Shown: positions 49,478 through 64,000, counted from the stretch's first letter. The stretch: DNA of 64,000 bases from an uncultured Candidatus Saccharibacteria bacterium (GCA_964423885.1 CAYRGD010000001.1:160660-224659), one strand, 5' to 3'. The notes: generated by a model not told the origin, from the letters alone. A program made the numbers and translations.

Positions 49478-51451
49478 TCAGCGGATCGTTGCGCCGAACT
49501 CACGTTCGAGCACATGTGCCATACGGTGTTCGATCTGTTCGATCTCGGTAAGTTCGAGCGTCCGCTCCGGGCTCGAAAACAGGATATGGAACGACAGACT
49601 CTTCTTTCCTTCCCCTAATTTCGGCGAGACGAATTCGTCGAAAAGCGTTACGTCTTCTACGAACGGATGCGATGCGACGAGGTATGCTCGGACCGTTTCG
49701 GGCGGTGTCTCGGTCGGGACAAGCAGCGACAGGTCGCGGGTAACCGGCGGGAACTTGGAGATCGGTCGGTATTGCCGCGGCATTCCTGGTAGTGCGAACG
49801 TGGCCGGTATCCGCCGGGCGGTTTTGAGCGTTTTGATCGGGATCTCGGCAAGATACGCTGGTAAATTCCGGATCCGGTACTGCTGCGCAGCCTCGTTTCC
49901 AACGGCGACATTGTGGAGTGCGGCTGTCAGTTCTGACGAATCCAATCCGAGGGTATCTGCGATCCGGGCGGTCCAGGTTTCGAGCGGTTCCTTCTGGTTC
50001 GCGATTGCAAGCCCGAGCTGCAGGTGTTCCGAGGTTTTCGTGAAGACATGGCCGATCTCGAACAGCAGGATCGGGTCGTAGTATCCATTCTTACCGACGG
50101 CACCTGCCAAGCCTGGCAAGAGCGACGGGCGGAGGAAGCGGAGTTGCGGATTCAGCGGATTCGCGAGCTCGCCTGTATCGGGCAATGCGAACCTATCCAG
50201 ATCCTGCTTGCCGATGAAGCTGTACGTGAGTACTTCGGAAAACCCGAGCTCGACGAGACAATCCTTTAGGCCTTCCACCCAGACCGTGTCGGACACCGCA
50301 CCCTCGTGGGGCTTGGTCGCAGGTAGGCGCGCTGCATCGATGCCGGTGTCGAGTCCGGTCAGCCGGGCGATTTCTTCGGCGCAATCCTGCCAGATCGTGA
50401 GGTCGGAGCGCCACGGCGGCGGGGTGACGGCAAACGGTGTATCCGGCGTGTCGCCGATTTGGCAGCCGAGCCGCTCGAGCAGGCGCTGCTGTGCTGCCCG
50501 GGTTATAGTGGCGCCGATCAGGCTTCGTACGCGCTTGTCGTCTACGTTGATCGACAGCTTGTCCGCAGGCGCTGTCCGGATAATGAGCTTGCCGATAGCT
50601 TTGGCGTGACCGAATTCCGGTTTCGATAAGAGCTCGACCGCCTGGTGTAATACCGGAAGACTGAGCGTGGGGTCGACGCCGCGTGCATACCGGTACGACG
50701 CGTCGGTGCCATGCTTCGCTGCCCGCATGGAGGCGCGGATCGCTGCTGGCTTGAACAGGGCGGACTGCAGCAGGATCCGGGTCGTCCGGTTGCTGACGGC
50801 TGTGTTGGCGCCTCCTTGGATACCGGCCAGGTCGACGACTGCCTTCGCGTCGGCGGCGACCAATGCGTCCGTACCGGGTGTCCGTTCGGTGCCGTCGAAC
50901 GTTGTCAGCGCTTCACCGTCATGGGCGTGGCGTATGGTGATCGTGCCGCCCACGATCGCGTCGGCGTCGAACGCATGGAGCGGCTGTCCGTAGAGCTCCA
51001 TGAGGTAGTTCGTCATATCCACGACGTTGTTGATCGGGCGCAGGCCGAACGACACGAGCGCGTCCGCGAGCCAAGGCGGGCTCGGCTGCACGGCCACGTT
51101 GTCGAGCAGTACGGCATGGTATTGGGTACAATCGTCGGTCTCGACGGTGATTGTTGGCTGCGACAGCTCGTCGAGCCGGTCGATCTGCGCCTGGTCGATA
51201 AGCCGCAAGACCGGACGGATGGCATCCGCAGGCGCGTCGGCGTCCAGTTTCGCTTGGAGGTCGCGGGCTACACCGAGGACGGACAGCGCATCGCCCCGGT
51301 TTGGCGTGACCTTGAGTTCGTAGACAGGCTGCTCGCCGGCTAAGAGCTCGGTTTCGAGGCCGAGTCGGTTGAGCTCGCCAGCGATCCGCTCCGGCGCGAG
51401 ACCGGCGAGTTCTGGCACGAAGGTTATCAAATCGCGGTGCGGTACCCTCAT
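49478..51451 (-). CDS. pheT: Phenylalanine--tRNA ligase beta subunit (short, no N-terminal tRNA-binding domain)
   Basis: B3/B4, B5 and class II-like C-terminal domains; 657 aa versus ~800 typical. Confidence 0.85.
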   Translation of the reverse strand: MRVPHRDLITFVPELAGLAPERIAGELNRLGLETELLAGEQPVYELKVTPNRGDALSVLGVARDLQAKLDADAPADAIRPVLRLIDQAQIDRLDELSQPTITVETDDCTQYHAVLLDNVAVQPSPPWLADALVSFGLRPINNVVDMTNYLMELYGQPLHAFDADAIVGGTITIRHAHDGEALTTFDGTERTPGTDALVAADAKAVVDLAGIQGGANTAVSNRTTRILLQSALFKPAAIRASMRAAKHGTDASYRYARGVDPTLSLPVLHQAVELLSKPEFGHAKAIGKLIIRTAPADKLSINVDDKRVRSLIGATITRAAQQRLLERLGCQIGDTPDTPFAVTPPPWRSDLTIWQDCAEEIARLTGLDTGIDAARLPATKPHEGAVSDTVWVEGLKDCLVELGFSEVLTYSFIGKQDLDRFALPDTGELANPLNPQLRFLRPSLLPGLAGAVGKNGYYDPILLFEIGHVFTKTSEHLQLGLAIANQKEPLETWTARIADTLGLDSSELTAALHNVAVGNEAAQQYRIRNLPAYLAEIPIKTLKTARRIPATFALPGMPRQYRPISKFPPVTRDLSLLVPTETPPETVRAYLVASHPFVEDVTLFDEFVSPKLGEGKKSLSFHILFSSPERTLELTEIEQIEHRMAHVLEREFGATIR

Positions 51452-52146
51452 GCATCCCCCTTGAACTGATTGAGGAACCGGAGACTGCCGCCGTAAAACT
51501 GACGGACGTCGTCGACGCCGTGGGCCATCATGGCGAAGCGGTCGATACCCATGCCGAACGCGAAGCCCTGAACTGTGTTCGGGTCAAGGCCCATCCGCTC
51601 AAGGACGCCCGGATGGATCATCCCTGCGCCGAGCATTTCGACCCAGGCACCTTTGATGCGGGCATGCATTTCGAGCCCCGGCTCGACGAACGGGAAGTAG
51701 GCAGGTACGAATAACGTTTCGGTGTCCGACCCGTACATATGGCTGATAAAGTCGGTCAGCATGCCTTTCAGCTCGGCCAGCGAAACCGATTCGCCGACGA
51801 CCAACCCTTCAAGTTGGAAGAAATTGGTTTCGTGCGTGGCATCGGTTGCTTCGTTGCGGAACACGCGTCCGGGAATGACCAGGCGAACCGGTGGTGTCCG
51901 GCCTTTCATGGCCGGGATCTGGTAGGCAGAGGTGTGCGTGCGGGGTAGCCGGCCATCCGTGAGCCAGAACGTGTCGTGCATCGTCCGGGCCGGATGGTCG
52001 GCAGGGATGCGTAGGTCGTCGAAATTATGCCGTTCGGTCGTGATTTCGGGGCTGTCCACGACCTCGAACCCCCGCTCGAGGAAGAAGGCTAGGCTGCGGC
52101 GCATGTACTGCGTGATCGGATGGAGCGAACCCTGGCGTACGGTCAT
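51448..52146 (-). CDS. pheS: Phenylalanine--tRNA ligase alpha subunit (catalytic core only)
   Basis: Class II motifs 1-3 (FWLTDGRLPRTHTSAYQ; FRNEATDATHETNFFQLEG; GFAFGMGIDRFAMM). Start trimmed to ATG 52146 after GGTAGGAGC. The frame is closed upstream, so the N-terminal coiled-coil arm is absent. Confidence 0.8.
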   Translation of the reverse strand: MTVRQGSLHPITQYMRRSLAFFLERGFEVVDSPEITTERHNFDDLRIPADHPARTMHDTFWLTDGRLPRTHTSAYQIPAMKGRTPPVRLVIPGRVFRNEATDATHETNFFQLEGLVVGESVSLAELKGMLTDFISHMYGSDTETLFVPAYFPFVEPGLEMHARIKGAWVEMLGAGMIHPGVLERMGLDPNTVQGFAFGMGIDRFAMMAHGVDDVRQFYGGSLRFLNQFKGDA

Positions 52147-52532
52147 GCTTCGGCTCCTACCGGTTGCCTGCGCAAACTCACCGCGACCTCGGCCGAGACG
52201 GCGGCAACGCATAACAGTGCGGTCTCCCACCCGTTGAGATTGGTATAGATGCGCAACAGTGCCCAGACGAGTAAAAATACGGCAAGCTCGATGCCTTGCC
52301 GGACTGCTTGGGAGACGCCGCGGGAATCAGGGAACCGCCGTGCCGCAGCCCGGCGCAGTTCGATGCCGAGGAACGCGAAGAACGAGCCGGCGGCCAAGAC
52401 GAAGCCCGATCCGACACTCGCGTACGCGATCGTATCCGCGGCTGACTGCGGCGTGGTCATGAGTACCCAGAGGACCAAGATCGATCCCAGGAGCAAGCCC
52501 GATGCTAGCCATGCGTAGACAGAGCGGTTCAT
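52143..52532 (-). CDS. Small hypothetical membrane protein (4 predicted TM helices)
   Basis: 129 aa, hydrophobic; ATGA overlap with pheS start. Confidence 0.4.
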   Translation of the reverse strand: MNRSVYAWLASGLLLGSILVLWVLMTTPQSAADTIAYASVGSGFVLAAGSFFAFLGIELRRAAARRFPDSRGVSQAVRQGIELAVFLLVWALLRIYTNLNGWETALLCVAAVSAEVAVSLRRQPVGAEA

Positions 52533-52858
52533 GGCAGCGAATCGAGGATCCGTTCGACCTCGACGATATTTCCGCCACGGTCGTCGGCCACGAACCGGAG
52601 ATTTGGGATGATCTTGAAATCAAGCAACGGCTTTAACCGGTGACGGATGGCGCCGGCGCGCGCGTTCAGGGTATCAACGTGCCCTGGCAGCCCTGCAACT
52701 GCAGTGACGTACACGCGGGCGTCTTTGAGGTCGCGCGTCGTGGTGACGGAGGTCAGCGTGACAAGATCGTTACCGCCGTCGAGCTCGCTGCGGACGATGT
52801 CGGACAGGAGCCGAAGGAGATACGCATTCACCCGATCCATGCGATCGACTGGTTTCAT
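52529..52858 (-). CDS. rbfA: Ribosome-binding factor A
   Basis: KH-like fold motifs RVNAYLLRLLSDIV and VTLTSVTTTRDLKDARVYV. Confidence 0.8.
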   Translation of the reverse strand: MKPVDRMDRVNAYLLRLLSDIVRSELDGGNDLVTLTSVTTTRDLKDARVYVTAVAGLPGHVDTLNARAGAIRHRLKPLLDFKIIPNLRFVADDRGGNIVEVERILDSLP

Positions 52859-52879
52859 GCGTATGATTCTAGCGGGTGT

Positions 52880-53254
52880 TTAGCGCTTTGCCCACTGCGG
52901 TGCACGGCGTGCACGCTTGAGACCCGGCTTCTTGCGTTCTTTTTCGCGCGGGTCGCGGGTAAGAAAGCCAGCTTGCTTCAGGACTTTCTTCGCTTCCGGC
53001 TTATAGGTGATTACCGCCCGGGCGATACCGTGTCGGATGGCGCCCAATTGGCCGGTGACGCCGCCGCCGATCACCTTGGCCGTGATGTCCACTTTACCGA
53101 TAAGCCCTGCGAGTTCCAGCGGTGCGAGCACGCTGCTGTGCGGCGATTCGACGGTTTGCCCGTTGACGACCAGCGACCCCTTGCCCTCGGTCATACGGAT
53201 GCGTGCGACAGCCCGCTTGCGGCGGCCGACGGTCGCGATACGTTCGCTGCTCAT
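52880..53254 (-). CDS. rpsI: 30S ribosomal protein S9
   Basis: GGGVTGQLGAIRHGIARAV and C-terminal ...RAPQWAKR. Confidence 0.9.
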   Translation of the reverse strand: MSSERIATVGRRKRAVARIRMTEGKGSLVVNGQTVESPHSSVLAPLELAGLIGKVDITAKVIGGGVTGQLGAIRHGIARAVITYKPEAKKVLKQAGFLTRDPREKERKKPGLKRARRAPQWAKR

Positions 53255-53658
53255 GCCTGCTCCTTCGCGGTTTCGGGCGCGGCTGCGCCATGGATCGTAA
53301 GCCGGCGCATCAGTTCCCTGCGCAGCCGGTTTTTCGGCAACATGTTGTAGACCGCCATCTCGATCACCTGCTCCGGCTTGGTGGCCATGAGGTCTTTTAG
53401 GCTGACTTCGCGCATACTACCCAAGTATCCGCTATGCCGGCGGTATACCTTTTGGTCGAGCTTCTTGCCGGTGACCGCGACATTCGCGGCGTTGATGACA
53501 ACGACCCGGTCGCCCTCGATCCGGTGCGGCGCGAACGTCGGTTTGTCTTTCCCACGGAGCGCCGTGGCGATTTCAGTCGCGATACGGCCGAGGACCTTGC
53601 CGCCTGCGTCGATCGTCCGGACGGTGTCGGTGGCGGGGAGATAGGTTTTCTTCTTCAT
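53251..53658 (-). CDS. rplM: 50S ribosomal protein L13
   Basis: GKVLGRIATEIATALRGK, NMLPKNRL. Confidence 0.9.
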   Translation of the reverse strand: MKKKTYLPATDTVRTIDAGGKVLGRIATEIATALRGKDKPTFAPHRIEGDRVVVINAANVAVTGKKLDQKVYRRHSGYLGSMREVSLKDLMATKPEQVIEMAVYNMLPKNRLRRELMRRLTIHGAAAPETAKEQA

Positions 53659-54122
53659 GCTGCTGCCTTTGCCGGTGCGGCCTTCTTGGGAGCCGGCGCT
53701 GTGCTTCCGGCGGTACGGTCTACAGCCTTGGTCTTCGCCGGTTTGTCGTCATCGGTTTTCGGCGGGTCGACGAAGGTGATCATCGAGGTTTCGGCCGCGT
53801 CGCCCTTGCGCATCCCGATCTTATAGAGACGGGTGTAGCCGCCGGCGCGGTCGCCGACACGCGACACGACGTTGTCGATCAAGATGCGTACCGCCGACGC
53901 ATTGCGGAGTTCCGCGACGAGCAGCCGGTGCAGCGCCAGTTTCGCGGCGCCGTTCGCACGGGCTGCTTTGCGTCCGGCGGTGATCCATCGTTCGACGATC
54001 GGACGGAGCGCTTTGGCTTTCGTCGTCGTGGTAGTCACATGGCCGTGCTCGATGAGCGAGATGCCCATCGTGGTGAGCATATGACGTTCTTTGTCGCGGA
54101 TGCGGCGGAACAGCAGTGCCAT
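53655..54122 (-). CDS. rplQ: 50S ribosomal protein L17
   Basis: HRKAML-like segment, GGYTRLYKIGMRKGD, Ala/Lys-rich tail. Confidence 0.85.
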   Translation of the reverse strand: MALLFRRIRDKERHMLTTMGISLIEHGHVTTTTTKAKALRPIVERWITAGRKAARANGAAKLALHRLLVAELRNASAVRILIDNVVSRVGDRAGGYTRLYKIGMRKGDAAETSMITFVDPPKTDDDKPAKTKAVDRTAGSTAPAPKKAAPAKAAA

Positions 54123-54125
54123 GGT

Positions 54126-54911
54126 TTACTCCGCCTGCTCCGGCTCGTCGGCAACGGCCTTCTTCGAAGTGCGCTTCTTGGCAGCCTTCTTCGGTTCCCC
54201 GTCCGTGGTCTGCGCGGCTGCCTGGGCCGCATCGCGAACGATACCGAAGTGCTCGACCAAGATCTGCGACGCCTTGCCCACGGCCTCGGCCGGCGAGACG
54301 GTGCCGTCAGTGGTGAGTTCGAGTGTCAGCTTGTCGTAGTCGGTCTGGCCGCCGACGCGGGTGTGCTCGACATCATAGTGGACCCGCTTGATCGGACTGA
54401 AGATCGAGTCGACCGCGATCGTGCCGAGCGGCAGCTTTTCGTTACCCTTGCGTTCGGTCGGAACGTAGCCGCGGCCGCGTTCGACCGTTACTTCCATCGA
54501 CAGTTTGCCGTTCTTGTCGAGCGTCGCCAGGTGATGGTCGGGATCGGCGATCGTGACATCGGCGTTCGGCGCGAAGTCGGCAGCGGTTACGGCGCCCGGC
54601 CCCTTCTTGTCGAGGCGGATTACCACCGACTCGTCGGATTCGGAGCGGACGCGGAGCGATTTGAGGTTCAGGATAAGCTCGACAATGTCTTCTTTCATAC
54701 CCTTGAGCGTCGTGAACTCATGGTCGGCGCCGTTGATCTTCACGTACGAGACGGCCGCGCCTTCGAGCGAGGTCAGCAGGACGCGGCGCAGGGAATGGCC
54801 GAGCGTCATGCCGTAGCCGGGAGCCAACGGCTCGATCACGAAGGTCGAGACCCGTTCAGAGCTCGGCTGTTCGGTGATCGTCATCCGTTCGGTGTCAGGC
54901 AGGATATACAT
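54126..54911 (-). CDS. rpoA: DNA-directed RNA polymerase alpha subunit, N-terminal domain only (no alpha-CTD)
   Basis: Start trimmed to ATG 54911 with a consensus AAGGAGCGTT-ATG RBS. NTD motifs EPLAPGYGMTLGHSLRRVLL. The protein ends right after the NTD (ILVEHFGIV) with a 35-aa Lys/Ala-rich tail. 261 aa. Confidence 0.85.
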   Translation of the reverse strand: MYILPDTERMTITEQPSSERVSTFVIEPLAPGYGMTLGHSLRRVLLTSLEGAAVSYVKINGADHEFTTLKGMKEDIVELILNLKSLRVRSESDESVVIRLDKKGPGAVTAADFAPNADVTIADPDHHLATLDKNGKLSMEVTVERGRGYVPTERKGNEKLPLGTIAVDSIFSPIKRVHYDVEHTRVGGQTDYDKLTLELTTDGTVSPAEAVGKASQILVEHFGIVRDAAQAAAQTTDGEPKKAAKKRTSKKAVADEPEQAE

Positions 54912-54924
54912 AACGCTCCTTGGC

Positions 54925-55530
54925 TTATCGCGAGTAGAACTCAATGATCAGCTGCTCTTCGAGGTCGGTGCCGATCTCGTCGCGGCTCGGAACCGACAGG
55001 ATCTCGCCCTTGAGGGCGGTCTTGCTTTCAGGCCGCAGCCAGACCGGCATGTCGTTGGTGCTCGGCTTGCGGGCGATCTTGGTCAACTCGATCACCTGAT
55101 TGGGCGCCATCTGCATCGACGGGATCGTGGCTTTCTTGCCATCTACCTTGACCAAGCCGTGCGTGACGTACTGGCGAGCCTGGCGGCGGGTATCAGCGAA
55201 GCCGAGCCGGTACACGACATTGTCGAGCCGGAGCTCAAGCAGCTGGAGCAGGCGCTCGCCGCTGTTGCCGGAGCTGCGCTGGGCCAAACTGTAGTAACGG
55301 CGGAACTGCTTTTCGAGCATGCCGTAGATCGCTTTCGCCTTCTGCTTTTCGAGCAGCTGACGGCCATATTCCGAACGTTTGCCCGGGCGGCGGCTCTGGC
55401 CATGTTGTCCCGGCGCGTAGCCGCGCTTCGTGAACGAGCTCTTCGGCCCAAGGCTGCGCTCCCCCTTCAGGAAGAGGTTGACGCCAGCGCGTCGGCTCAA
55501 TCGTTCGGTCGGTCCTGTGTAGCGTGCCAT
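54925..55530 (-). CDS. rpsD: 30S ribosomal protein S4
   Basis: MARYTGPTERLSRRAGVNLFLKGER; S4 RNA-binding domain. Confidence 0.9.
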   Translation of the reverse strand: MARYTGPTERLSRRAGVNLFLKGERSLGPKSSFTKRGYAPGQHGQSRRPGKRSEYGRQLLEKQKAKAIYGMLEKQFRRYYSLAQRSSGNSGERLLQLLELRLDNVVYRLGFADTRRQARQYVTHGLVKVDGKKATIPSMQMAPNQVIELTKIARKPSTNDMPVWLRPESKTALKGEILSVPSRDEIGTDLEEQLIIEFYSR

Positions 55531-55545
55531 ATGGTGCTCCGATGT

Positions 55546-55920
55546 TTAGACGCGGCGCGGCTTCTTGGCGCGGACGCCATTGTGGGCGACCGGGGTGACA
55601 TCCTTCATTGAGGTAACGCGGACGCCGGTGCCACCGATCGAGCGGACTGCCTGTTCGCGGCCCGAGCCGACACCCGAGACGAAGACGGACGCTTCCTGCA
55701 GCCCCATGGCTTTGGCGCGTTCGAGCGCGTCGAGCATGGCGGTCTGGGCGGCGTACGGGGTCGCCTTGCGTGCGCCCTTGAACCCCTTGGTTCCGGCGCT
55801 CGACCAGGACAGAACGTTCCCGTCGGCATCCGTGATCGTGATGATGGTGTTGTTGAAGGTCGACTGGACGTAGATCCGGCCGGTCGTGACCTGTTTCTGG
55901 GATTTCTTTTTGGTGGCCAT
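55546..55920 (-). CDS. rpsK: 30S ribosomal protein S11
   Basis: GRIYVQSTFNNTIITITD, SSAGTKGFKGARKATPYAAQ. Confidence 0.9.
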   Translation of the reverse strand: MATKKKSQKQVTTGRIYVQSTFNNTIITITDADGNVLSWSSAGTKGFKGARKATPYAAQTAMLDALERAKAMGLQEASVFVSGVGSGREQAVRSIGGTGVRVTSMKDVTPVAHNGVRAKKPRRV

Positions 55921-55926
55921 GGCGGG

Positions 55927-56313
55927 TTATGTCTTCGCTGCTGACGGTTTGCGGCCCGAGCCGACGTTGACTCGCTTGCCGCGCTTGGTACGGGCGTTCG
56001 TTTTGGTGCGCTGGCCGCGGACCGGCAAGCGGCGGGCGTGCCTGTCGCCACGATAGGTACCGATTTCCCGCAGGCGCTTGACGTGTTGGGCGACTTTCAT
56101 GCGCAGCTCGCCCTCGACCGTATACTCGCGCTCGACGATGTCGCGGAGCTCCGACACTTCGGCTTCGGACAGCTCTTGCATCCGCCGACCCGGTTCGATA
56201 CTCGTCCGGGCAAGGATCGCGTCGGCCGCGCTCCGTCCGATGCCATGGATCGCGGTCAGGGCGATCCGGGCGGGTTTCTGGTTCGGCAATGTGACGCCGG
56301 CGATACGGGCCAT
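55927..56313 (-). CDS. rpsM: 30S ribosomal protein S13
   Basis: MARIAGVTLPNQK, GIGRSAADAI, YRGDRHARRLPVRGQRT. Confidence 0.9.
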   Translation of the reverse strand: MARIAGVTLPNQKPARIALTAIHGIGRSAADAILARTSIEPGRRMQELSEAEVSELRDIVEREYTVEGELRMKVAQHVKRLREIGTYRGDRHARRLPVRGQRTKTNARTKRGKRVNVGSGRKPSAAKT

Positions 56314-56316
56314 GGC

Positions 56317-56430
56317 TTATCCTTGTACCTGCTTATGGCGCGGGTTTTCGCAGATGATCCGTACCTTGCGGGCACGCAGGATCACCTTGCACTTCTCGCA
56401 CCGTTTCCGAACTGAAGCAGATACTTTCAT
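56317..56430 (-). CDS. rpmJ: 50S ribosomal protein L36
   Basis: Not in ORF track. [37 protein letters not shown], Zn-ribbon C-x2-C...C...H; sits between infA and rpsM as usual. Confidence 0.8.
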
Positions 56431-56678
56431 CGCCGTTCCTCGTCTCGTTGGTCGACGCTGAACCGGTAGCTGATCCGTCCGCGGGTCAGGTCGTACGGTG
56501 ACAGTTCCACCTTGACCCGGTCACCCGGCAGGATCTTGATCCGGTTCATACGGATTTTGCCTGAAATAGTCGTGAGAATAGTGAGCGCTGCCTGCCCCGT
56601 GTTGACTTCAACGCGAAACATAGCATTGGGTAACGCTTCCGTCACCATGCCCTCAAACTCGATAACGTCTTTTGCCAT
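56427..56678 (-). CDS. infA: Translation initiation factor IF-1
   Basis: [25 protein letters not shown]..., S1-like OB fold. Confidence 0.9.
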
Positions 56679-56702
56679 GTCGTAATTTCAATGACTGTTG
56701 GG

Positions 56703-56732
56703 AGTATACGAAAAAGGATCTGATCGGTCAAC
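56703..56732 (-). promoter_or_regulatory. Candidate sigma70-type promoter for infA-rpmJ-rpsM...
   Basis: Minus strand: TTGACC (56732-56727), 18-nt spacer, TATACT (56708-56703), ~25 nt upstream of the infA start, in the 62-nt map-infA gap. Confidence 0.4.
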
Positions 56733-56740
56733 AGGGAACA

Positions 56741-57496
56741 TCAAGCATCCGTCCGTGTAAGGATGTCGCACCCGTGCGCTGTAACAAGGAGCGTATCCTC
56801 GCTGTGGGCTGCCCGGGATCCGTCGGCGGTCGAGATCGTCCAGCCGTCGGCCGCGGTTTCCACTTCGTCGGTGCCGCGGGTGATCATCGGTTCGAGACAG
56901 ATCGCCATGCCCGCCTCGAGTACTGGACCGGTGCCGACGCGTCCGGCATTGGGGATCGACGGCGGCTCGTGCAGGTTACGGCCGATGCCATGGCCGGTGA
57001 GCGAGGTGACATTGCCGAACCCCGAACGGTCGATTACGGCCTGGATAGCCGCCTGGACGTCGCCCAGGCGGACGCCGTCCCGGACGGCAGCGATGCCGGC
57101 CGCGAGCGCTTGCTCTGCGACGGTGGTGAGGCGACTGTCTTCGGTGTCAGCCGGAGCCAATACGACCGTTCGGGCCGCATCCGCGTTCCATCCTTGGTAG
57201 CGGACGCCGATATCGACCGATACGACGTCGCCCCGCTCGAGCGGCTGGTCATCGGGAATACCGTGAACCACTTGGTTGTTCCGTGACAGGCAGATCGTGG
57301 CCGGGTAGCCGTTGAACCCAAGAAATCCCGGCTCACCGCCCAGACGGACGATCGTGTCTTGGGCGAGCTGGTCGAGCGTCGTGCCGGTTATGCCAGGCTC
57401 GATGGCTGCCACGACCGTATCGAGCGTCGTGGCCAGGATCGCGCCGGCGCGGCGCATCGCCGCGATGTCTTCGGGTTGCTTCGCATACCTAGCCAT
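56741..57496 (-). CDS. map: Methionine aminopeptidase type I
   Basis: Metal-binding motifs DVVSVDIGV, GHGIGRNLHE, EPMITRG. Confidence 0.9.
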   Translation of the reverse strand: MARYAKQPEDIAAMRRAGAILATTLDTVVAAIEPGITGTTLDQLAQDTIVRLGGEPGFLGFNGYPATICLSRNNQVVHGIPDDQPLERGDVVSVDIGVRYQGWNADAARTVVLAPADTEDSRLTTVAEQALAAGIAAVRDGVRLGDVQAAIQAVIDRSGFGNVTSLTGHGIGRNLHEPPSIPNAGRVGTGPVLEAGMAICLEPMITRGTDEVETAADGWTISTADGSRAAHSEDTLLVTAHGCDILTRTDA

Positions 57497-58076
57497 GGAT
57501 GATGCCTCTCTCGGTCAACGCGTCGACGATCATCCGCTGCACCGTCTCGATCGGGTGGTCGCCGCATACCTCGACGACCTCGTCTTGCGCACGGAAATGG
57601 CTGAGGATCGCCTGGATCTTTTCGGTCGACCATTCGAGGCGGCGGGCGATAAGCTCGGGCGTGTCGTCGGCCCGGCCGCGGGCCATGAGCCGCTTGATCG
57701 CGTGTTCTTTGGACAACGTGAGATAGACAATGAGCGGATCAGGGAGATGGTACTCGTGCCGGAACCGATCGAACTCGGCGAGCTGGTCGGGCGTGCGCAG
57801 GAAGCCGTCGAACACAAGGCCGCGGCTGGCGTCGACAGTCTGGAAGACACGTTCGATCACCGGCCGCCAGAGCTCGGTCGGCAGGTATTCGCCCCGCTCA
57901 AGCAGCGCCTTGACCGACCGTCCGAGCGGCGTGTCCTGGTGAGCCTCGTCGCGGAACAGTTGGCCGGCCTCGGCCCGCGGCAGGCCGAGCTTGTCGGCAA
58001 GCAGGGATGACTGCGTCCCCTTGCCGCTTCCCTGCGGTCCGAGGAATACCAGGATGCGGGGCTTCGTGAGTGTCAT
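57489..58076 (-). CDS. adk: Adenylate kinase (short LID, no zinc)
   Basis: P-loop FLGPQGSGKGTQ, LVFDGFLRT. Start trimmed to ATG 58076 (ATGA overlap with the upstream stop). Confidence 0.85.
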   Translation of the reverse strand: MTLTKPRILVFLGPQGSGKGTQSSLLADKLGLPRAEAGQLFRDEAHQDTPLGRSVKALLERGEYLPTELWRPVIERVFQTVDASRGLVFDGFLRTPDQLAEFDRFRHEYHLPDPLIVYLTLSKEHAIKRLMARGRADDTPELIARRLEWSTEKIQAILSHFRAQDEVVEVCGDHPIETVQRMIVDALTERGIIHG

Positions 58077-59062
58077 TCGGCGTCCACCCATGCACCAACA
58101 AATGAAGCTGATCCGTAGCGGGATTGGGTGCCGGCAGGTAATCCGAGAATAAACAACGCTCCGTCGTCGCCGACCGTAGCCAGCCACGCGCCGTCGCGCG
58201 AGATAGCGAGCGAGGTCTCATTGCCAGGCAGGTCGGCGAGTAGTTGCCGCTCGCCGGAATCCGTCCGGATCGTGATGATGCTTGCCCCTATGCCGTCGAC
58301 AATGACGTTGACAGCGACCAAGTTGTTGCGCTGCCAGGCGATACTGATGACACGCTCGTCCGGACCGAATGACGCAACTTTACGTGGATCCGCGCCGTTA
58401 TGGGCAGCCCAGAGTTCTTGGTCGTCGTCGCCCGGCTTACCCTTGACGTACGCGACCATAGTGCCGTCCTGTGACCAGGCAGGTATCGACAACCAACTCG
58501 CTCCCTGGTCGATTACCTGGCGTCCGCCACCCTGCAGCCGCTCGGTGACCAATGCGTATCCGTAGCTCCGCTCCGCATTGTCGAACGTGATAAACGACAG
58601 GGTATCGGTTCCAGGGCGGTACGCTGCCGAACCCCAGGGGTCGTACGCAAGCGCGTGGCCGAGGTCGATGGGAAAATCGGTCCGAGTACCAGTTCCATCG
58701 AGCGCGATCGCAGCGACGTAGCTCCGGCCGTCATCGGCCACGAAGGCTGCGATCGCTTGTCCGTCCCGCACGCCGAGCACGTGCTCGAGATCAGGATCAC
58801 TGAATACGACGTGCTCGCGGCCGTCGGAATCCCGCTCCATGAGCTGGTCGCCGCGTATGTACAGCAGAGCCGGGGCTTGCGCGGTGTCGGGCGCAGGTTG
58901 AGGCGGAAGCGGCTGTCCGGCCGACATGCCGCTGGTTGAGGCGAGGTCTGCCGTCGTATGCATCGACGGATGCGACCTCATCCAAAACAATGCGCCGGCC
59001 ATGACGGCCAATGCAAGGAATCCGAGTACGGCAATCCTGACCGGCCGTCGGTCAGAACTCAT
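58073..59062 (-). CDS. Membrane-anchored TolB-like beta-propeller protein inserted between secY and adk
   Basis: Start trimmed to ATG 59062 (MSSDRRPVRIAVLGFLALAVMAGALFW TM anchor), overlapping the secY stop by 11 nt. Repeated segments (DGTMVAYV, DGAWLATVGDDGALFIL) suggest WD40/TolB-like blades. Confidence 0.5.
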   Translation of the reverse strand: MSSDRRPVRIAVLGFLALAVMAGALFWMRSHPSMHTTADLASTSGMSAGQPLPPQPAPDTAQAPALLYIRGDQLMERDSDGREHVVFSDPDLEHVLGVRDGQAIAAFVADDGRSYVAAIALDGTGTRTDFPIDLGHALAYDPWGSAAYRPGTDTLSFITFDNAERSYGYALVTERLQGGGRQVIDQGASWLSIPAWSQDGTMVAYVKGKPGDDDQELWAAHNGADPRKVASFGPDERVISIAWQRNNLVAVNVIVDGIGASIITIRTDSGERQLLADLPGNETSLAISRDGAWLATVGDDGALFILGLPAGTQSRYGSASFVGAWVDAE

Positions 59063-60314
59063 AACGTCTGGTGGTGAGCTGGGCCCGGATCTGTCGCATC
59101 GTGTCCAAGATAACCGATACGACGATGAGGATACCAGTACCACCGAGCACCAGTGTTTGGATATTGGTCAGGCTTTGGACGACGAACGGCAGAACCGCGA
59201 TCGCAGCCAAGAAAAACGCGCCGAGCAGCGTGACTCGGTTCAAGACCTTGCTCAAGTATTCCGCGGTTTCGCGTCCGGGCCGCAAGCCGGGAATGAAGCC
59301 GCCTTGTTTCTGGATGTTTTCGGCCACTTGTTCGGGCTGGAAGACGATCGAGGTGTAGAAGAACGTGAAAATCACGACCAAGCAGAAGTAGGCGATCCCG
59401 TAAAACGTGTTGTTGGCGAACAGGTCGGTCACCTTTTGGGCGGCGGTGCGGACCCACGGGGTCTGGACCGTTTCCAGGAAGCGGGCCGCGACCGGCGGGA
59501 AAATCATCATCGACAGCGCGAAGATGATCGGCACGACGCCGGCCATCGTCACCTTGAGCGGCAGGAAGGTGGCGACGCCGCCCGAGGCCTGGTTGCCCCG
59601 CACCCGGCGGGCGTAGGTGATCGGGACCTGGCGCTCGCCCTCGTTCACGAACACGATACTGACAGTGACGAGCGCGGCGATGACGACAAAGATAATGATG
59701 TTGACGATGCCCGCCTGGTCAGCCACCTGGAACGTTTGCGACACGGCCGACGGGATCCCTGACAGGACGCCGAGCGTGATAAGCAATGACATGCCATTGC
59801 CGATCCCGTTTTCGGAAATGAGCTCGCCGATCCAGACGAGCAGCATCGTCCCGGCTGTGACAGTAAGTAAGATCGTAAAGAGGTTGAGCGGCGTGAATGC
59901 GCCGACGATCCCCTGGTTCTTCAAGAGGATGAGCGTGCTGTAGCCTTGTAGGAATGCCAGCGGGACGGTAAGTAATCTCGTGTACTGGTTGATCCGCTCG
60001 CGGCCGGCTTCCCCTTCCTTCTGCAGCTCTTCGAGCCGGGGTACGATAATGATGAGCAGCTGGAAGATGATAGAGGCGGTAATGTACGGCCCGACACCCA
60101 TAAGGACGATCGAGAAGTTTTCCATCGATCCGCCCGTGAACAGGTTCAAGAGGCCGAACAGCGCGTACTGGCTGAAGAATGCCCGGATCGCTGCCAGGTC
60201 GACGCCCGGCATCGGGATATGGGCAAGGACGCGGAAGATGGTCAGCAGGCCGAGCGTGTAGAGGATCCGCTTGCGCAGGTCGGGGCTATGCCAGATTGCG
60301 CGGAGCGTGTTCAT
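59052..60314 (-). CDS. secY: Preprotein translocase subunit SecY
   Basis: 10 TM helices; motifs GIMPYITASII and ENLQKQGGFIPGLRPG. Confidence 0.9.
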   Translation of the reverse strand: MNTLRAIWHSPDLRKRILYTLGLLTIFRVLAHIPMPGVDLAAIRAFFSQYALFGLLNLFTGGSMENFSIVLMGVGPYITASIIFQLLIIIVPRLEELQKEGEAGRERINQYTRLLTVPLAFLQGYSTLILLKNQGIVGAFTPLNLFTILLTVTAGTMLLVWIGELISENGIGNGMSLLITLGVLSGIPSAVSQTFQVADQAGIVNIIIFVVIAALVTVSIVFVNEGERQVPITYARRVRGNQASGGVATFLPLKVTMAGVVPIIFALSMMIFPPVAARFLETVQTPWVRTAAQKVTDLFANNTFYGIAYFCLVVIFTFFYTSIVFQPEQVAENIQKQGGFIPGLRPGRETAEYLSKVLNRVTLLGAFFLAAIAVLPFVVQSLTNIQTLVLGGTGILIVVSVILDTMRQIRAQLTTRRYEF

Positions 60315-60730
60315 CGCTGGACGTGTGCCTGGTAGACCGCTTTCGTGAATGTAAGGCCGCGGAACTTGAGTTTCTTGGTGAGCGTGCCGCTGCCGACGAT
60401 CTTGGCCGCCTTGGCGTCGCTGCCGACCAATCCCTTGGCGCGGAGCGTTTTGAGCGTCACGACATTGCCGTCTTGAAACGCATGGTCGAGCTGCGTCAGT
60501 GTAACGGTCGCCGTCAATGGACGGTGCGGGAACCGGCGGCCGCGCAGCTTCGGCAGACGCATGAAGAGCTTGGTCTGGCCGCCTTCGAAACCGGCGGGAA
60601 TGTTGAAGCCTGACCGCGCCTTCTGGCCTTTGGTGCCACGGCCGGCGCTCTTGCCTTGTCCGGCCGAGATGCCTCGTCCGAGCCGGCGGGCGCGCTTCAC
60701 CGTGCGCGGGAGCGTATGGAGCGAGCTCAT
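60311..60730 (-). CDS. rplO: 50S ribosomal protein L15
   Basis: [22 protein letters not shown] glycine-rich N-terminus typical of L15. Confidence 0.9.
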
Positions 60731-61212
60731 GCGCGTGCCTTTCTGGCCGGGCGTTCTTTCATGGTTGCCAGCGCCTGGATCGTGGCGCGGACGTTGTTCG
60801 TCTTATTGTTTGAGCCGATCATCTTGGACAGGATATTTTTGATGCCTGCCAGTTCGATCACTGCCCGGATCGGGCCGCCTGCGATCACCGAGGTGCCGGC
60901 CGCGGCCGGTTTCAGAAAGATCTGCGCGCTGCCCAAGCGGACGGTGGTTTCGTGCGGGATCGTGTCGTTCACGATCGGTACGGTCACGAGCTTCTTCTTG
61001 GCTGCCTGGCCGGCTTTCTTGATCGCCTGTTGGACGTCGCCGGCTTTGCCGAGGCCCATACCGACCTTGCCGTTCCGATTGCCGATCACGACCAAGGCTC
61101 GGAAACGCATGCGCTTGCCGCCCTTGACGGTGCGCGAGACGCGCGAGAGCTCGACGAGCCGCTCTTCGAACTCGCTTTTCGGTTTGTCGTGGGTATCGTG
61201 ATGATCAGCCAT
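60727..61212 (-). CDS. rpsE: 30S ribosomal protein S5
   Basis: [32 protein letters not shown]. Stop overlaps the rplO start, so there is no room for rpmD (L30). Confidence 0.9.
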
Positions 61213-61220
61213 ACAACTCC

Positions 61221-61571
61221 TTAGAACTGCAATCCGCCGGCCCGGGCGGCTGCCGCGAAGGCGGCGACACGGCCATGGTAGCGGTATCCGCGGCGGTCGA
61301 AGACGGCTGCGGTGATATTGGCGGCTTTCGCTTGCTCGGCCAGCCGTTCGCCGACGGCCGTGGCTTGCTTGATGCCGGTGTCCTTCGTGCCGACCATATC
61401 GTCGGTGGCATAGGCCAGCGTCCGGCCGGCCGCGTCATCGATGAGCTGCGCACGGAAGTGCTTGGCGGTCCGTTGGACGGACAGCCGTGGCCGCGCCGCT
61501 GTGCCGGCAACAACCATGCGGATTTTCCGGACGCGCCGCGCCCGTCTGGTTGCTTGGGAAACGTGTGTCAT
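61221..61571 (-). CDS. rplR: 50S ribosomal protein L18
   Basis: [42 protein letters not shown]. Confidence 0.9.
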
Positions 61572-62110
61572 GCTCCTGCCGCCTTTGCTGCCTTACCGGC
61601 TTTCTTCCGGACATGTTCGCCGACATAGCGGATACCCTTGCCCTTGTACGGCTCGGGCGGCCTGACCCGGCGGATGTCCGCTGCCACCTGGCCGACGCGC
61701 TGCTTGTCGATACCGGCGACCGTGATGATCTTTTGGACGTCGATGTCGATGCCCTGGGGCGGCTCGATCGTGACCGGGTGCGAGTAGCCGACATTTAACA
61801 CAAGGGCATTCCCCTGCTTCGCCGCTTTGTACCCGACACCGCGGAGCTCAAGCTGCTTCGCGAATGGTTCGGCCACGCCCATGAGCGCGTTTTCGATAAG
61901 CCTGACCGTCAGGCCGCGGAGCGACCGGGACAACTTGCTCGTGTTGACCGCATCGACGGTAATCGCGCCGTCGGCTTGGTTGACGCGGACATTCGGATGC
62001 AACGCCACGGTCAACTCGCCTTTCGGGCCTTTGGCGACCAGCTGCCGGTCGGCAAGGGTGACCGTGATCGTATCGGCGACAGTCAGTCGCCGACCACCGA
62101 CGCGGCTCAT
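61568..62110 (-). CDS. rplF: 50S ribosomal protein L6
   Basis: MSRVGGRRLTV, two L6 alpha/beta repeats, GKGIRY. Confidence 0.9.
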   Translation of the reverse strand: MSRVGGRRLTVADTITVTLADRQLVAKGPKGELTVALHPNVRVNQADGAITVDAVNTSKLSRSLRGLTVRLIENALMGVAEPFAKQLELRGVGYKAAKQGNALVLNVGYSHPVTIEPPQGIDIDVQKIITVAGIDKQRVGQVAADIRRVRPPEPYKGKGIRYVGEHVRKKAGKAAKAAGA

Positions 62111-62499
62111 GACAGTACCTCGCAGATGACTTCACCGCCGACCGCACGCTTCATTGCTTCGGCACCGGTCATGAACCCCTGCGGGGTCGACAAGATGACG
62201 TGGCCGAAGCCGCCGCGAGGCCGCGGGATGCGGGCCGCTTTGGCGTAGACGCGGAGACCAGGCGTCGAGATTCGGCGGATACTCTTGATCGCCGAAGCGC
62301 CGTCATGGTAATTGAGCACCAGCTTCAGCTGCGTGTGCCCCTGTTCCGTCTCGACGGTGTCGACAGCTTTCAGGTAGCCGTGGTCGCGCAAGAGCGAAGC
62401 GATCGACGCCTTGACGCGCGAGTGCGGCACCAAGACTTCGGCCTTGCCCAGCTGGGCGGCGTTGCGGATTTGGGTGAGCATGTTTGCAATGGGGTCCAT
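62107..62499 (-). CDS. rpsH: 30S ribosomal protein S8
   Basis: MDPIANMLTQIRNA, GGEVICEV. Confidence 0.9.
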   Translation of the reverse strand: MDPIANMLTQIRNAAQLGKAEVLVPHSRVKASIASLLRDHGYLKAVDTVETEQGHTQLKLVLNYHDGASAIKSIRRISTPGLRVYAKAARIPRPRGGFGHVILSTPQGFMTGAEAMKRAVGGEVICEVLS

Positions 62500-62507
62500 A
62501 CCAGCTC

Positions 62508-62693
62508 CTACCAGGATGACTTCGTGACGCCGGGAATCTCGCCCTTATGCGCCAGCTCGCGGAAGCAGATGCGGCAGATGCCGTAGGCGCGCAAGTAGGC
62601 CCGGTTCCGACCGCAGATGCCGCATCGGTTCACTGCGCGGGTGGAAAACTTGGGCGTGCGGGCGGCTTTGACTTTGAGTGATTGCTTGGCCAT
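62508..62693 (-). CDS. rpsN: 30S ribosomal protein S14 type Z (zinc-binding, 61 aa)
   Basis: [38 protein letters not shown] with C-x2-C...C-x2-C. Confidence 0.85.
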
Positions 62694-62701
62694 ATCGACT
62701 C

Positions 62702-63253
62702 CTACTTGGCTTCCTCGCGACGGACGAGCGGCAGACCGAGCGAGCGCAAGAGCGCTTCGGTCGCTTCGCCCGACGTCGCGCTCGTGACGATCGTCACGCC
62801 CAGTCCGTAAAACTCGCTGACGCGTTCGTGGTCGATTTCCGGAAAGACCGTGTGCTCGCGGATACCGAACGAGTACCCGCCCCGGCCGTCGAAGCCAGTG
62901 AGCGGCAGGCCGCGGAAGTCGCGGATGCGCGGTAAGACGACGTGGACGAGCCGTTCCAGGAAATCGTACATCCGCTTGCCACGGAGCGTCGAAGACAAGC
63001 CGATCACCTCGCCGGCACGGAGCTTGAACCCTGCGATCGCCTTGTGCGCCGACCGCGAGGCCGGCTTCTGGCCGGTAATCTTGGCAAGGTCGGCCGCCGC
63101 GATCTCAAGGAACTTGCCGTGCTGGCGCCGCGAACCGGTGCCGATGTTGACGACGATCTTCGTCACTGCCGGTACGGCGTTCACGTTCGCGATCGAGAGC
63201 TCGGTGCCGAGCTTCGGCCGGAGTTCGGTGGCGAATTGGGTGCGCAGTCTCAT
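62702..63253 (-). CDS. rplE: 50S ribosomal protein L5
   Basis: [31 protein letters not shown]. Confidence 0.9.
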
Positions 63254-63582
63254 TTGTCCGCCTTCTTGGCTTCGGCCGCCAGGGCAGCGCCGCAGTGTTT
63301 GCAGGTGCGCACCTTGCCGGTGTCAGTGAGCTTCATAGCGATGCGGGTCGGCTTGCTGCACGACGGGCAGACAAGGAGGACGTTACTGACCGCGAGCGGG
63401 GCCGCGAACTCGACGATGCCGCCCGCCGGCTGCTTGGCTGTTGGCTTGGTGTGGCGCTTGGCCATGTTGACGCCCTCGATCACGACCCGGTCGGCTTTCG
63501 GCAGGACACGGACCACCGTCCCGCGCTTGCCGCGGTCCTTGCCGGTAATCACCATGACGGTATCGTTGCGTCGGATCTTCAT
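63250..63582 (-). CDS. rplX: 50S ribosomal protein L24 with Cys4-containing C-terminal region
   Basis: KOW motif [16 protein letters not shown]-terminal [33 protein letters not shown] has two CxxC pairs 17 residues apart. Confidence 0.85.
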
Positions 63583-63947
63583 AGTACCTCTGGGGCGAGC
63601 GAGACGATCTTTTGGAAGCCGCGGGTGCGGACCTCACGGGCAACCGGGCCCAGGACGCGCGTGCCGCGGGGCTGCCCGTCGTCGCCGACGATCACGACCG
63701 CGTTGTCATCGAACCGGATCGCGCTGCCGTCGGCCCGCTGGAACCGGTTCCGTTGCCGGACGATAACCGCTTTCGCGACTTCTTTCTTCTTGACGGTGCC
63801 GCGGGGCAGCGCGTCTTTCACCGTCACGACGATCGTGTCGCCGAGCTGGGCCGCGTCCTGCTTGCGTCCGCCTAATACACGGATGCACATCACTTCTTTG
63901 GCGCCGGTGTTATCGGCGACAGCCAGGCGGGAAAAGGGTTGGATCAT
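63579..63947 (-). CDS. rplN: 50S ribosomal protein L14
   Basis: [37 protein letters not shown]. Confidence 0.9.
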
Positions 63948-64000
63948 GCCTGCTCCTTGCCGTCGACCTCGATCGCACTGTCGGCGACCACGACGCCTGC
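63945..64000 (-). CDS. rpsQ: Partial CDS running off the right edge: probable 30S ribosomal protein S17 C-terminus
   Basis: Minus-strand frame ...[18 protein letters not shown]-stop with TGA overlapping the rplN ATG (ATGA). Position upstream of rplN matches S17; only 18 codons visible. Confidence 0.45.

Follow-up and report, generated by a model that had tools for sequence, protein, structure and literature searches.

A predicted membrane-anchored beta-propeller gene between secY and adk in the L30-less ribosomal-protein operon of a Patescibacteria bacterium

The analysed DNA was a 64-kb window (the whole 64,000-nucleotide stretch GCA_964423885.1 CAYRGD010000001.1:160660-224659, from an uncultured Candidatus Saccharibacteria bacterium). 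Its last part displayed a continuous array of ribosomal and associated genes, all on the minus strand, with the integration of one additional gene (referred to as the insert) between secY and adk (Table 1). Apart from the insert, this array was an ordinary spc-alpha ribosomal-protein operon of the candidate phyla radiation (CPR, or Patescibacteria). The gene order proposed in an initial annotation of the window, from rpsQ to rplQ and then rplM-rpsI-rbfA, was reproduced by open reading frame (ORF) listing, Pfam, and base-level reading; the Pfam scan covered nine window proteins, and the remaining gene names rest on the translations and on homology to a relative annotated by Pfam. Relatives with the same genes by Pfam shared 66-96% identity with the region rplN to rpsE. 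The name rpsQ, of which only the last 18 codons lay inside the window, was assigned by synteny: a relative carried S17 (PF00366) upstream of L14 with the same 4-nt overlap, and in the window the stop of this partial gene likewise overlapped the L14 start.

The insert encoded a product of 329 aa, and the initially given 330 holds as a codon number when the stop is counted. The two junctions, initially described as an 11-nt overlap with secY and an ATGA overlap with adk, were both found by base-level reading: the 3' end of secY read acc aga cgt tat gag ttc tga, and the insert ATG was embedded therein as ATGAGTTCTGA (context ...cgttATGAGTTCTGA), starting at 59062, 11 nt inside secY, with the overlap encoding M-S-S of the insert over ...Y-E-F-stop of SecY. 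The same 11-nt overlap was present in the related loci L003 and L008, a relative from a European Nucleotide Archive (ENA) assembly had both 11-nt and 4-nt overlaps, and the N-terminal MSS recurred in many family members. The 11-nt overlap was confined to a high-GC subgroup with the SecY end ...RRYEF, while the AT-rich members had the insert start 8-100 nt downstream of secY, one of them (L007) with a clear Shine-Dalgarno sequence AGGAGG before the insert ATG. The public gene call P0001 (296 aa) started at M34 and dropped the transmembrane (TM) helix (window region 58961-59062); this start was probably mis-called because the N-terminal helix and the MSS start were conserved across the family, and this conservation supports the longer 329-aa form over the M34 start. 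A scan of 57300-60500 revealed no sigma-70-like promoter, and matches to terminators were no more frequent than in shuffled controls; because of the overlapping start and stop codons, the lack of a promoter-like site, and the lack of a terminator excess, the insert is very likely co-transcribed with the operon.

The insert had initially been described as membrane-anchored and TolB-like, and at the fold level this was borne out by structure prediction. AlphaFold of the single sequence gave a predicted local distance difference test score (pLDDT) of only 38, while an AlphaFold2 model with 25 aligned family members had pLDDT 86.8 and a predicted template modelling score (pTM) of 0.78, and it was composed of a helix (residues 9-30), a disordered segment (34-52), and 24 beta-strands (65-326) arranged as six four-stranded blades. 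The helix had pLDDT 87-88 and was also present in the single-sequence run; an N-terminal hydrophobic stretch was found in all family members, and its length of about 20-22 residues without a lipobox suggests an uncleaved anchor. The insert product is thus predicted to be a single-pass membrane protein of type II, in which a short basic tail in the cytoplasm is followed by a TM helix, a stalk, and an external propeller. Its topology would be N-in/C-out and uncleaved; the anatomy, taken apart from this topology, can be stated with high confidence.

The family members differed considerably across these modules: mean pairwise identity was lowest in the stalk (16%) and the TM helix (20%), reached 26% in the propeller, and was highest (51%) in a signature FxNAExxFGFxL within the propeller. 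Residues F160, N162, G168, and L171, all located in this signature, were invariant, D89, D122, E164, and W243 were near-invariant, and a C-terminal G-W motif was found in most members. The stalk was 25-54 residues long across the family and rich in Thr/Pro/Ser/Ala. In many members this variable stalk contained a conserved motif, QGGAP(T)D(V)TP (alignment columns ~40-60), which was absent from the window copy; this motif is a possible processing or modification site. PD40 (PF07676) was recognised in 10 of the 25 members (best E 1.1e-14), and the window copy was sub-threshold in Pfam (WD40, E 0.009), its membership being given by the family profile (E 4e-81) and the model; at the family level, repeats plus propeller fold placed these proteins in the PD40/WD40-like superfamily. 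No catalytic domain was found, the only matches to peptidase-associated propellers being at the level of repeats.

A word-indexed search for homologues of the insert retrieved only the insert itself, while an exhaustive HMMER search gave 616 hits, mostly generic PD40/WD40 repeat proteins, among which about 25 full-length representatives (330-360 aa) aligned end to end with the insert. The sole source name within this family was 'hypothetical protein' (one member), and nothing on TolB-like proteins in Patescibacteria or on a secY-adk insert was found in the literature.

Relatives of the window were gathered with SecY as probe against species-representative genomes, and their secY-adk junctions were compared. 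The insert was present and intact in close relatives, which therefore did not show the absence or pseudogenisation that the initial annotation had named as part of a refuting condition: the family hidden Markov model (HMM) had one match each in the window and 13 loci (L002-L010, L013, L015, L083, and L084), always immediately downstream of secY, and no second copy was found in the 64-kb window. A secY-adk gap of about 1.05-1.1 kb filled by the propeller gene was restricted to relatives of the window in a survey of 80 CPR loci. The bearers included genomes of high GC as well as AT-rich ones, their SecY identity reaching as low as 56%. In a neighbour-joining tree of SecY, the single protein from which their history was read, they split into two groups inside one larger clade, separated by a group without the gene (L011, L012, L014, L016, L017, and L025). 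Vertical inheritance after a single entry in the ancestor of one CPR clade appears to be the best explanation of this distribution, and the 14 occurrences count as one data point because they would stem from one ancestral insertion. Recent horizontal acquisition was rejected, as the overall GC content of the gene equalled that of its neighbours and the gene was shared across a deep clade.

The secY-adk junction was a recurrent insertion point in CPR, and ten loci harbored other genes at this site: (i) a CitMHS transporter in L033 and L052; (ii) a presenilin-type signal-peptide peptidase in L030; (iii) a NUDIX hydrolase in L049; (iv) a MurD-like Mur ligase in L054; (v) extra tandem copies of adk in L043, L047, and L053; and (vi) small proteins, YbaB-like by eye, in L069 and L080. 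In addition, L013, L083, and L084, which represented one subclade of distant members of the propeller family, had a LysM gene directly after the propeller gene and before adk, and the LysM (peptidoglycan-binding) product carried an N-terminal hydrophobic stretch. L084 also contained a gene between rplO and secY, encoding a 134-aa membrane protein with a weak DUF1761 match below the Pfam cutoff; with it, the spc operon is interrupted at a second place in this group.

The window secY product was 96-46% identical to Patescibacteria SecY, and the whole list of relatives clustered in one SecY tree; nearly all of these relatives bore Patescibacteria/CPR labels, the exceptions being a few evident automated mislabels in distant rows. 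The three nearest SecY relatives had identities of 96%, 89%, and 74% (the last from a genome labelled Candidatus Berkelbacteria), and the closest set (96-59%) consisted of Patescibacteria-group metagenome-assembled genomes (MAGs) labelled Saccharibacteria or Berkelbacteria. Judged from SecY, the host belongs to the Patescibacteria (CPR), and its relatives include MAGs labelled Berkelbacteria. The initial annotation had also pointed out that the rpsE stop overlaps the rplO start, leaving no space for rpmD, and had taken the absence of L30 as a hallmark of CPR/Patescibacteria; the first was evident as an ATGA overlap, and the second agreed with the lineage by SecY and with the literature on the trait. 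No L30 was found in the 64-kb window or 82 related loci with a small HMM of four L30 sequences (best E 0.37-0.48; jackknife positive control 1e-21). An L30-like blip near 47.1 kb was dismissed as noise, being out of frame within a 320-aa ORF that resembled D-Ala-D-Ala carboxypeptidase (by eye, unscanned). Approximate S5-L15 gaps were mostly below 130 nt in 78 CPR loci. All CPR bacteria are described as lacking L30, with S5 beside L15 in their genomes (Brown et al. 2015, as cited in bioRxiv 10.1101/2022.01.07.475337). The window showed exactly this known state, S5 being directly followed by L15 with no detectable L30, and it differed by the clade-specific gene after secY, of which no mention was found in the papers retrieved. 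The L30 part of the finding is therefore correct and already known, and adds nothing new.

A further modular variation was found in rpoA. The window RpoA contained PF01000 and PF01193 only and had no alpha C-terminal domain (alpha-CTD, PF03118); L17 started 3 nt after the rpoA stop, and within 60 nt of it in the relatives checked. The alpha-CTD was also absent from all five propeller-bearing relatives checked (L004, L007, L009, L010, and L015; RpoA of 242-290 aa), and every CTD-less RpoA ended in a short Lys/Arg-rich tail, e.g., PKKAAKKRTSKK. By contrast, the outgroup CPR RpoAs of L012, L016, L025, and L028 retained the alpha-CTD, and a Bacillus subtilis alpha-CTD query matched 33 other CPR loci. 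The loss of the alpha-CTD and the propeller insert had the same distribution. The 64-kb window contained no recognisable stand-alone alpha-CTD, and a report of alpha-CTD loss in CPR was not found in the literature.

At the other end of the array, the rbfA stop was overlapped (ATGA) by a 129-aa hydrophobic ORF with no Pfam match, and the 3' end of this ORF in turn overlapped the listed start of a minus-strand ORF that, by eye only, resembled a pheS homologue.

Table 1. Coordinates of the operon genes, of the modules of the insert, and of related features in other CPR loci
Feature	Locus	Coordinates	Strand	Basis
rpsQ (S17), 3' end of gene upstream of rplN (18 codons + stop)	window	63944..64000	-	synteny only
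spc ribosomal genes rplN, rplX, rplE, rpsN, rpsH, rplF, rplR, rpsE	window	60727..63947	-	ORFs; Pfam for S5
L14 (rplN)	window	63579-63947	-	ORF
L24 (rplX)	window	63250-63582	-	ORF
L5 (rplE)	window	62702-63253	-	ORF
S14 (rpsN), 61 aa, Zn type	window	62508-62693	-	ORF
S8 (rpsH)	window	62107-62499	-	ORF
L6 (rplF)	window	61568-62110	-	ORF
L18 (rplR)	window	61221-61571	-	ORF
S5 (rpsE)	window	60727-61212	-	ORF, Pfam
rpsE stop / rplO start ATGA overlap	window	60727..60730	-	ORF coordinates
L15 (rplO)	window	60311..60730	-	Pfam PF00828, E 3.8e-08
secY, 420 aa, end ...RRYEF*	window	59052..60314	-	Pfam SecY, E 2e-102
Insert, 329 aa, predicted to cross the membrane once and to carry an external six-bladed PD40 (TolB-type) beta-propeller	window	58073..59062	-	
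secY/insert 11-nt overlap ATGAGTTCTGA	window	59052..59062	-	base-level read
Insert TM helix codons, residues 9-30, probable uncleaved signal anchor	window	58973..59038	-	model + hydrophobicity
Insert stalk codons, residues 31-62, disordered, low-complexity	window	58877..58972	-	pLDDT below 50
Insert propeller codons, residues 63-329, 24 strands, G/A-W closing motif	window	58076..58876	-	model, PD40, alignment
Insert signature F-x-N-A-E-x-x-(F/Y)-G-(F/Y)-x-L	window	58550..58585	-	invariant alignment columns
Insert stop / adk start ATGA overlap	window	58073..58076	-	base-level read
adk, 195 aa	window	57489..58076	-	Pfam ADK, E 8.7e-26
map, infA, rpmJ, rpsM, rpsK, rpsD	window	54925..57496	-	ORFs; tblastn homology to relatives
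Map	window	56741-57496	-	ORF
InfA	window	56427-56678	-	ORF
L36 (rpmJ), followed by S13, S11, S4	window	56317-56430	-	ORF
rpoA, up to 272 aa (start position uncertain), with Lys-rich C-terminal tail	window	54126..54944	-	Pfam PF01000 + PF01193
rplQ, rplM, rpsI, rbfA	window	52529..54122	-	ORFs; Pfam for L17 + RBFA
L17 (rplQ)	window	53655-54122	-	ORF, Pfam
129-aa hydrophobic ORF	window	52143-52532	-	
pheS homologue	window	51448-52230	-	by eye only
CTD-less rpoA	L004	9897-10769		
CTD-less rpoA	L007	12596-13390		
CTD-less rpoA	L009	12524-13252		
CTD-less rpoA	L010	12894-13700		
CTD-less rpoA	L015	12847-13650		
LysM gene after propeller gene	L013	9882-10553		
LysM gene after propeller gene	L083	1231-1779		
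LysM gene after propeller gene	L084	4993-5682		
134-aa membrane protein gene between rplO and secY	L084	2244-2648		weak DUF1761 match below Pfam cutoff

The insert was compared with known propeller systems, among which TolB was its closest solved structure (e.g., PDB 1c5k, 2hqs, and 4r40). TolB and the insert had the six-bladed PD40 beta-propeller in common, and the structural alignments spanned 256-278 residues, comparable to the 267-residue insert propeller, at a sequence identity of 15-20%. Orthology to TolB was nevertheless rejected on four features: (i) the cutoff of the TolB equivalog TIGR02800 was 343 bits, while the window protein scored 16.4 and six relatives scored 18-42, with few propeller repeats matching; (ii) the TolA-binding N-terminal alpha/beta domain of TolB was absent from the insert, where only the TM helix and a disordered linker preceded the propeller; (iii) tolB genes had tolQ-tolR-tolA and pal nearby, while the insert was flanked by secY and adk (window and 10 loci) or by secY and the LysM gene (three loci); and (iv) TolB had a cleaved signal peptide, while the insert had a predicted, probably uncleaved N-terminal TM anchor plus a stalk. 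Moreover, the hosts of TolB are diderm, while CPR bacteria are regarded as monoderm. Membrane-anchored six-bladed propeller ectodomains of monoderms were represented by the NHL sensor domain of PknD (Mycobacterium tuberculosis, PDB 1rwi) and by Pfam Gmad1 (the LpqB beta-propeller); the insert differed from them in having no kinase or other cytoplasmic output domain, PD40 instead of NHL repeats, and no two-component partner nearby. The propellers of S9-type and tricorn peptidases (DPP5, acylaminoacyl peptidase, and Tricorn_N/Tricorn_2nd) were matched in Foldseek (E ~1e-8), and repeat-level matches to such proteins (PF26550, PF26549, NCBIfam Dpp5, and lasso isopeptidase) were found in relatives, but the insert consisted of the propeller alone, with no peptidase domain attached or adjacent.

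The reading preferred here, with a probability of about 0.5, is that the insert encodes a vertically inherited, envelope-exposed binding propeller that uses the operon for its expression and is not itself a dedicated partner of SecYEG; this value covers the whole statement including the function, for which co-translation and the ligand-binding role are inferred. The propeller gene would share the operon transcript; in the high-GC subgroup, translation would reinitiate at the overlapping insert ATG after secY and at the adk ATG after the insert, while the AT-rich relatives would use the start downstream of secY, in one case with the clear Shine-Dalgarno sequence. The signal-anchor helix would then insert the protein N-in/C-out, and the flexible low-complexity stalk would hold the propeller on display, as would be typical of wall-spanning surface proteins of monoderms. 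Lone six-bladed propellers (TolB, the PknD sensor, and the NHL and YWTD domains) serve for the most part as binding platforms, which makes a binding role the best guess: the propeller would be a non-enzymatic envelope platform with a protein, peptide, or cell-wall ligand on its face, as TolB binds Pal, and the operon position would give it steady expression. Some points weigh against this reading: A-x-A-like sites followed the helix in some relatives; a single gain requires one extra loss in the non-bearing group or an error in the single-protein tree; the propeller gene was found nowhere except immediately after secY, as a translocon-linked role would also predict; and no homologue of the LysM protein was found in the window, where, as in most relatives, the propeller gene had no LysM neighbour.

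The divergence of the insert bears on a different possibility, that of a fast-evolving surface adhesin or a host-contact or phage-exposed protein, whose stalked propeller would bind a host surface molecule in an arms race. Whichever loci were compared, no gene of the block diverged faster than the insert: SecY was 96% and the propeller 45% identical between the window and L008 (with 98% for InfA, 75% for Adk, and 72% for Map by tblastn), and the corresponding values were 88% and 48% for L003 and L008, 86% and 53% for L010 and L015, and 80% and 44% for L006 and L007. Its GC content at third codon positions (GC3), 0.69, was the lowest among the 19 operon genes computed (0.73-0.86), its overall GC content being typical, and this low GC3 suggests weaker codon or translational selection than on the neighbours. 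The stalk architecture would suit display through the wall, and cultivated Patescibacteria are obligate episymbionts according to published abstracts. However, the rapid divergence fits diversifying pressure on an exposed protein and weak constraint alike, relaxed constraint would equally explain the low GC3, the gene was strictly single-copy with an invariant internal motif, and its co-expression with ribosomal proteins would be constitutive rather than regulated; an adhesin of this kind is accordingly held to be unlikely.

The initial annotation had proposed from the gene position both co-regulation with the translocon and a possible role at the SecYEG exit. The former stands insofar as co-transcription is very likely, while nothing positive was found for the latter. 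As an accessory factor of the translocon, the protein would dock its TM helix beside SecYEG, its propeller would receive or chaperone emerging proteins, and the coupling to secY would set the stoichiometry. Such a role would agree with a gene lying right after secY in the window and all 13 loci, with the start overlapping the secY stop in the high-GC subgroup, and with a membrane anchor joined to an external fold of the peptide-binding type, and the signal-peptide peptidase of L030 shows that secretion-related genes can settle at this junction. The adjacency to secY, however, would trace back to one ancestral event, other CPR lineages had unrelated genes at the same junction (CitMHS, NUDIX, Mur ligase, adk, and YbaB-like), and the operon already held adk, map, and infA, ancestral spc passengers unrelated to secretion; the AT-rich members had no overlap with secY at all. 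Further, no signal of SecY co-evolution was found, the SecY proteins of the bearers having no diagnostic indel and one diagnostic substitution (L181); the anchor that would have to dock and the stalk of variable length were poorly conserved, the propeller was only 45% identical where SecY was 96% identical, and the window protein and 24 relatives gave no Pfam or NCBIfam match to Sec accessory proteins (SecDF, YajC, YidC, and PpiD/YfgM). A dedicated translocon factor is quite improbable on this evidence. A wider formulation, in which the propeller would be a clade-specific extracytoplasmic partner of the envelope or secretion machinery of ultrasmall bacteria, either a receiving platform of SecYEG or a LysM-paired tether, and its gain would coincide with a remodelling of the core machinery including the alpha-CTD loss, is given equally little credence.

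As a minimal TolB-Pal-like envelope tether in a monoderm, the propeller would bind the LysM partner and link the membrane to the wall, e.g., at division. Pal is the peptidoglycan-binding partner of TolB in the Tol-Pal system, and the pairing of propeller and LysM genes in L013, L083, and L084 recalls tolB-pal, which together with TolB as the closest solved structure gives a hint of a cell-wall link; set against the missing LysM neighbour in the window and most relatives, such a tether seems very improbable. That the insert is a spurious or decaying ORF, i.e., a chance frame in GC-rich DNA or a pseudogene, has practically no chance and was rejected: high-GC DNA does give many long spurious ORFs, and the window copy had only the sub-threshold WD40 match and the lowest GC3 of the operon, but the gene has stayed intact over deep divergence, in the window as in 13 loci, matched the profile of its relatives at E 4e-81, had invariant motifs and a confident predicted fold, and without it secY-adk would have no intergenic DNA.

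Even one of the most conserved bacterial operons can thus take up new genes in CPR: an unannotated, fast-evolving, putative surface propeller has persisted there in one clade over deep divergence, and the secY-adk junction of other lineages holds different genes. The insert together with the RpoA CTD loss may mark a Berkelbacteria-related clade; for transcription biology, the finding on RpoA is perhaps the lead of greater interest. Should the propeller turn out to act together with the translocon or the cell wall, a poorly understood group would gain a new envelope component; it is likelier to be one more surface protein, at an unusual yet explicable place in the genome, from a family that is itself undescribed within a very common fold class.

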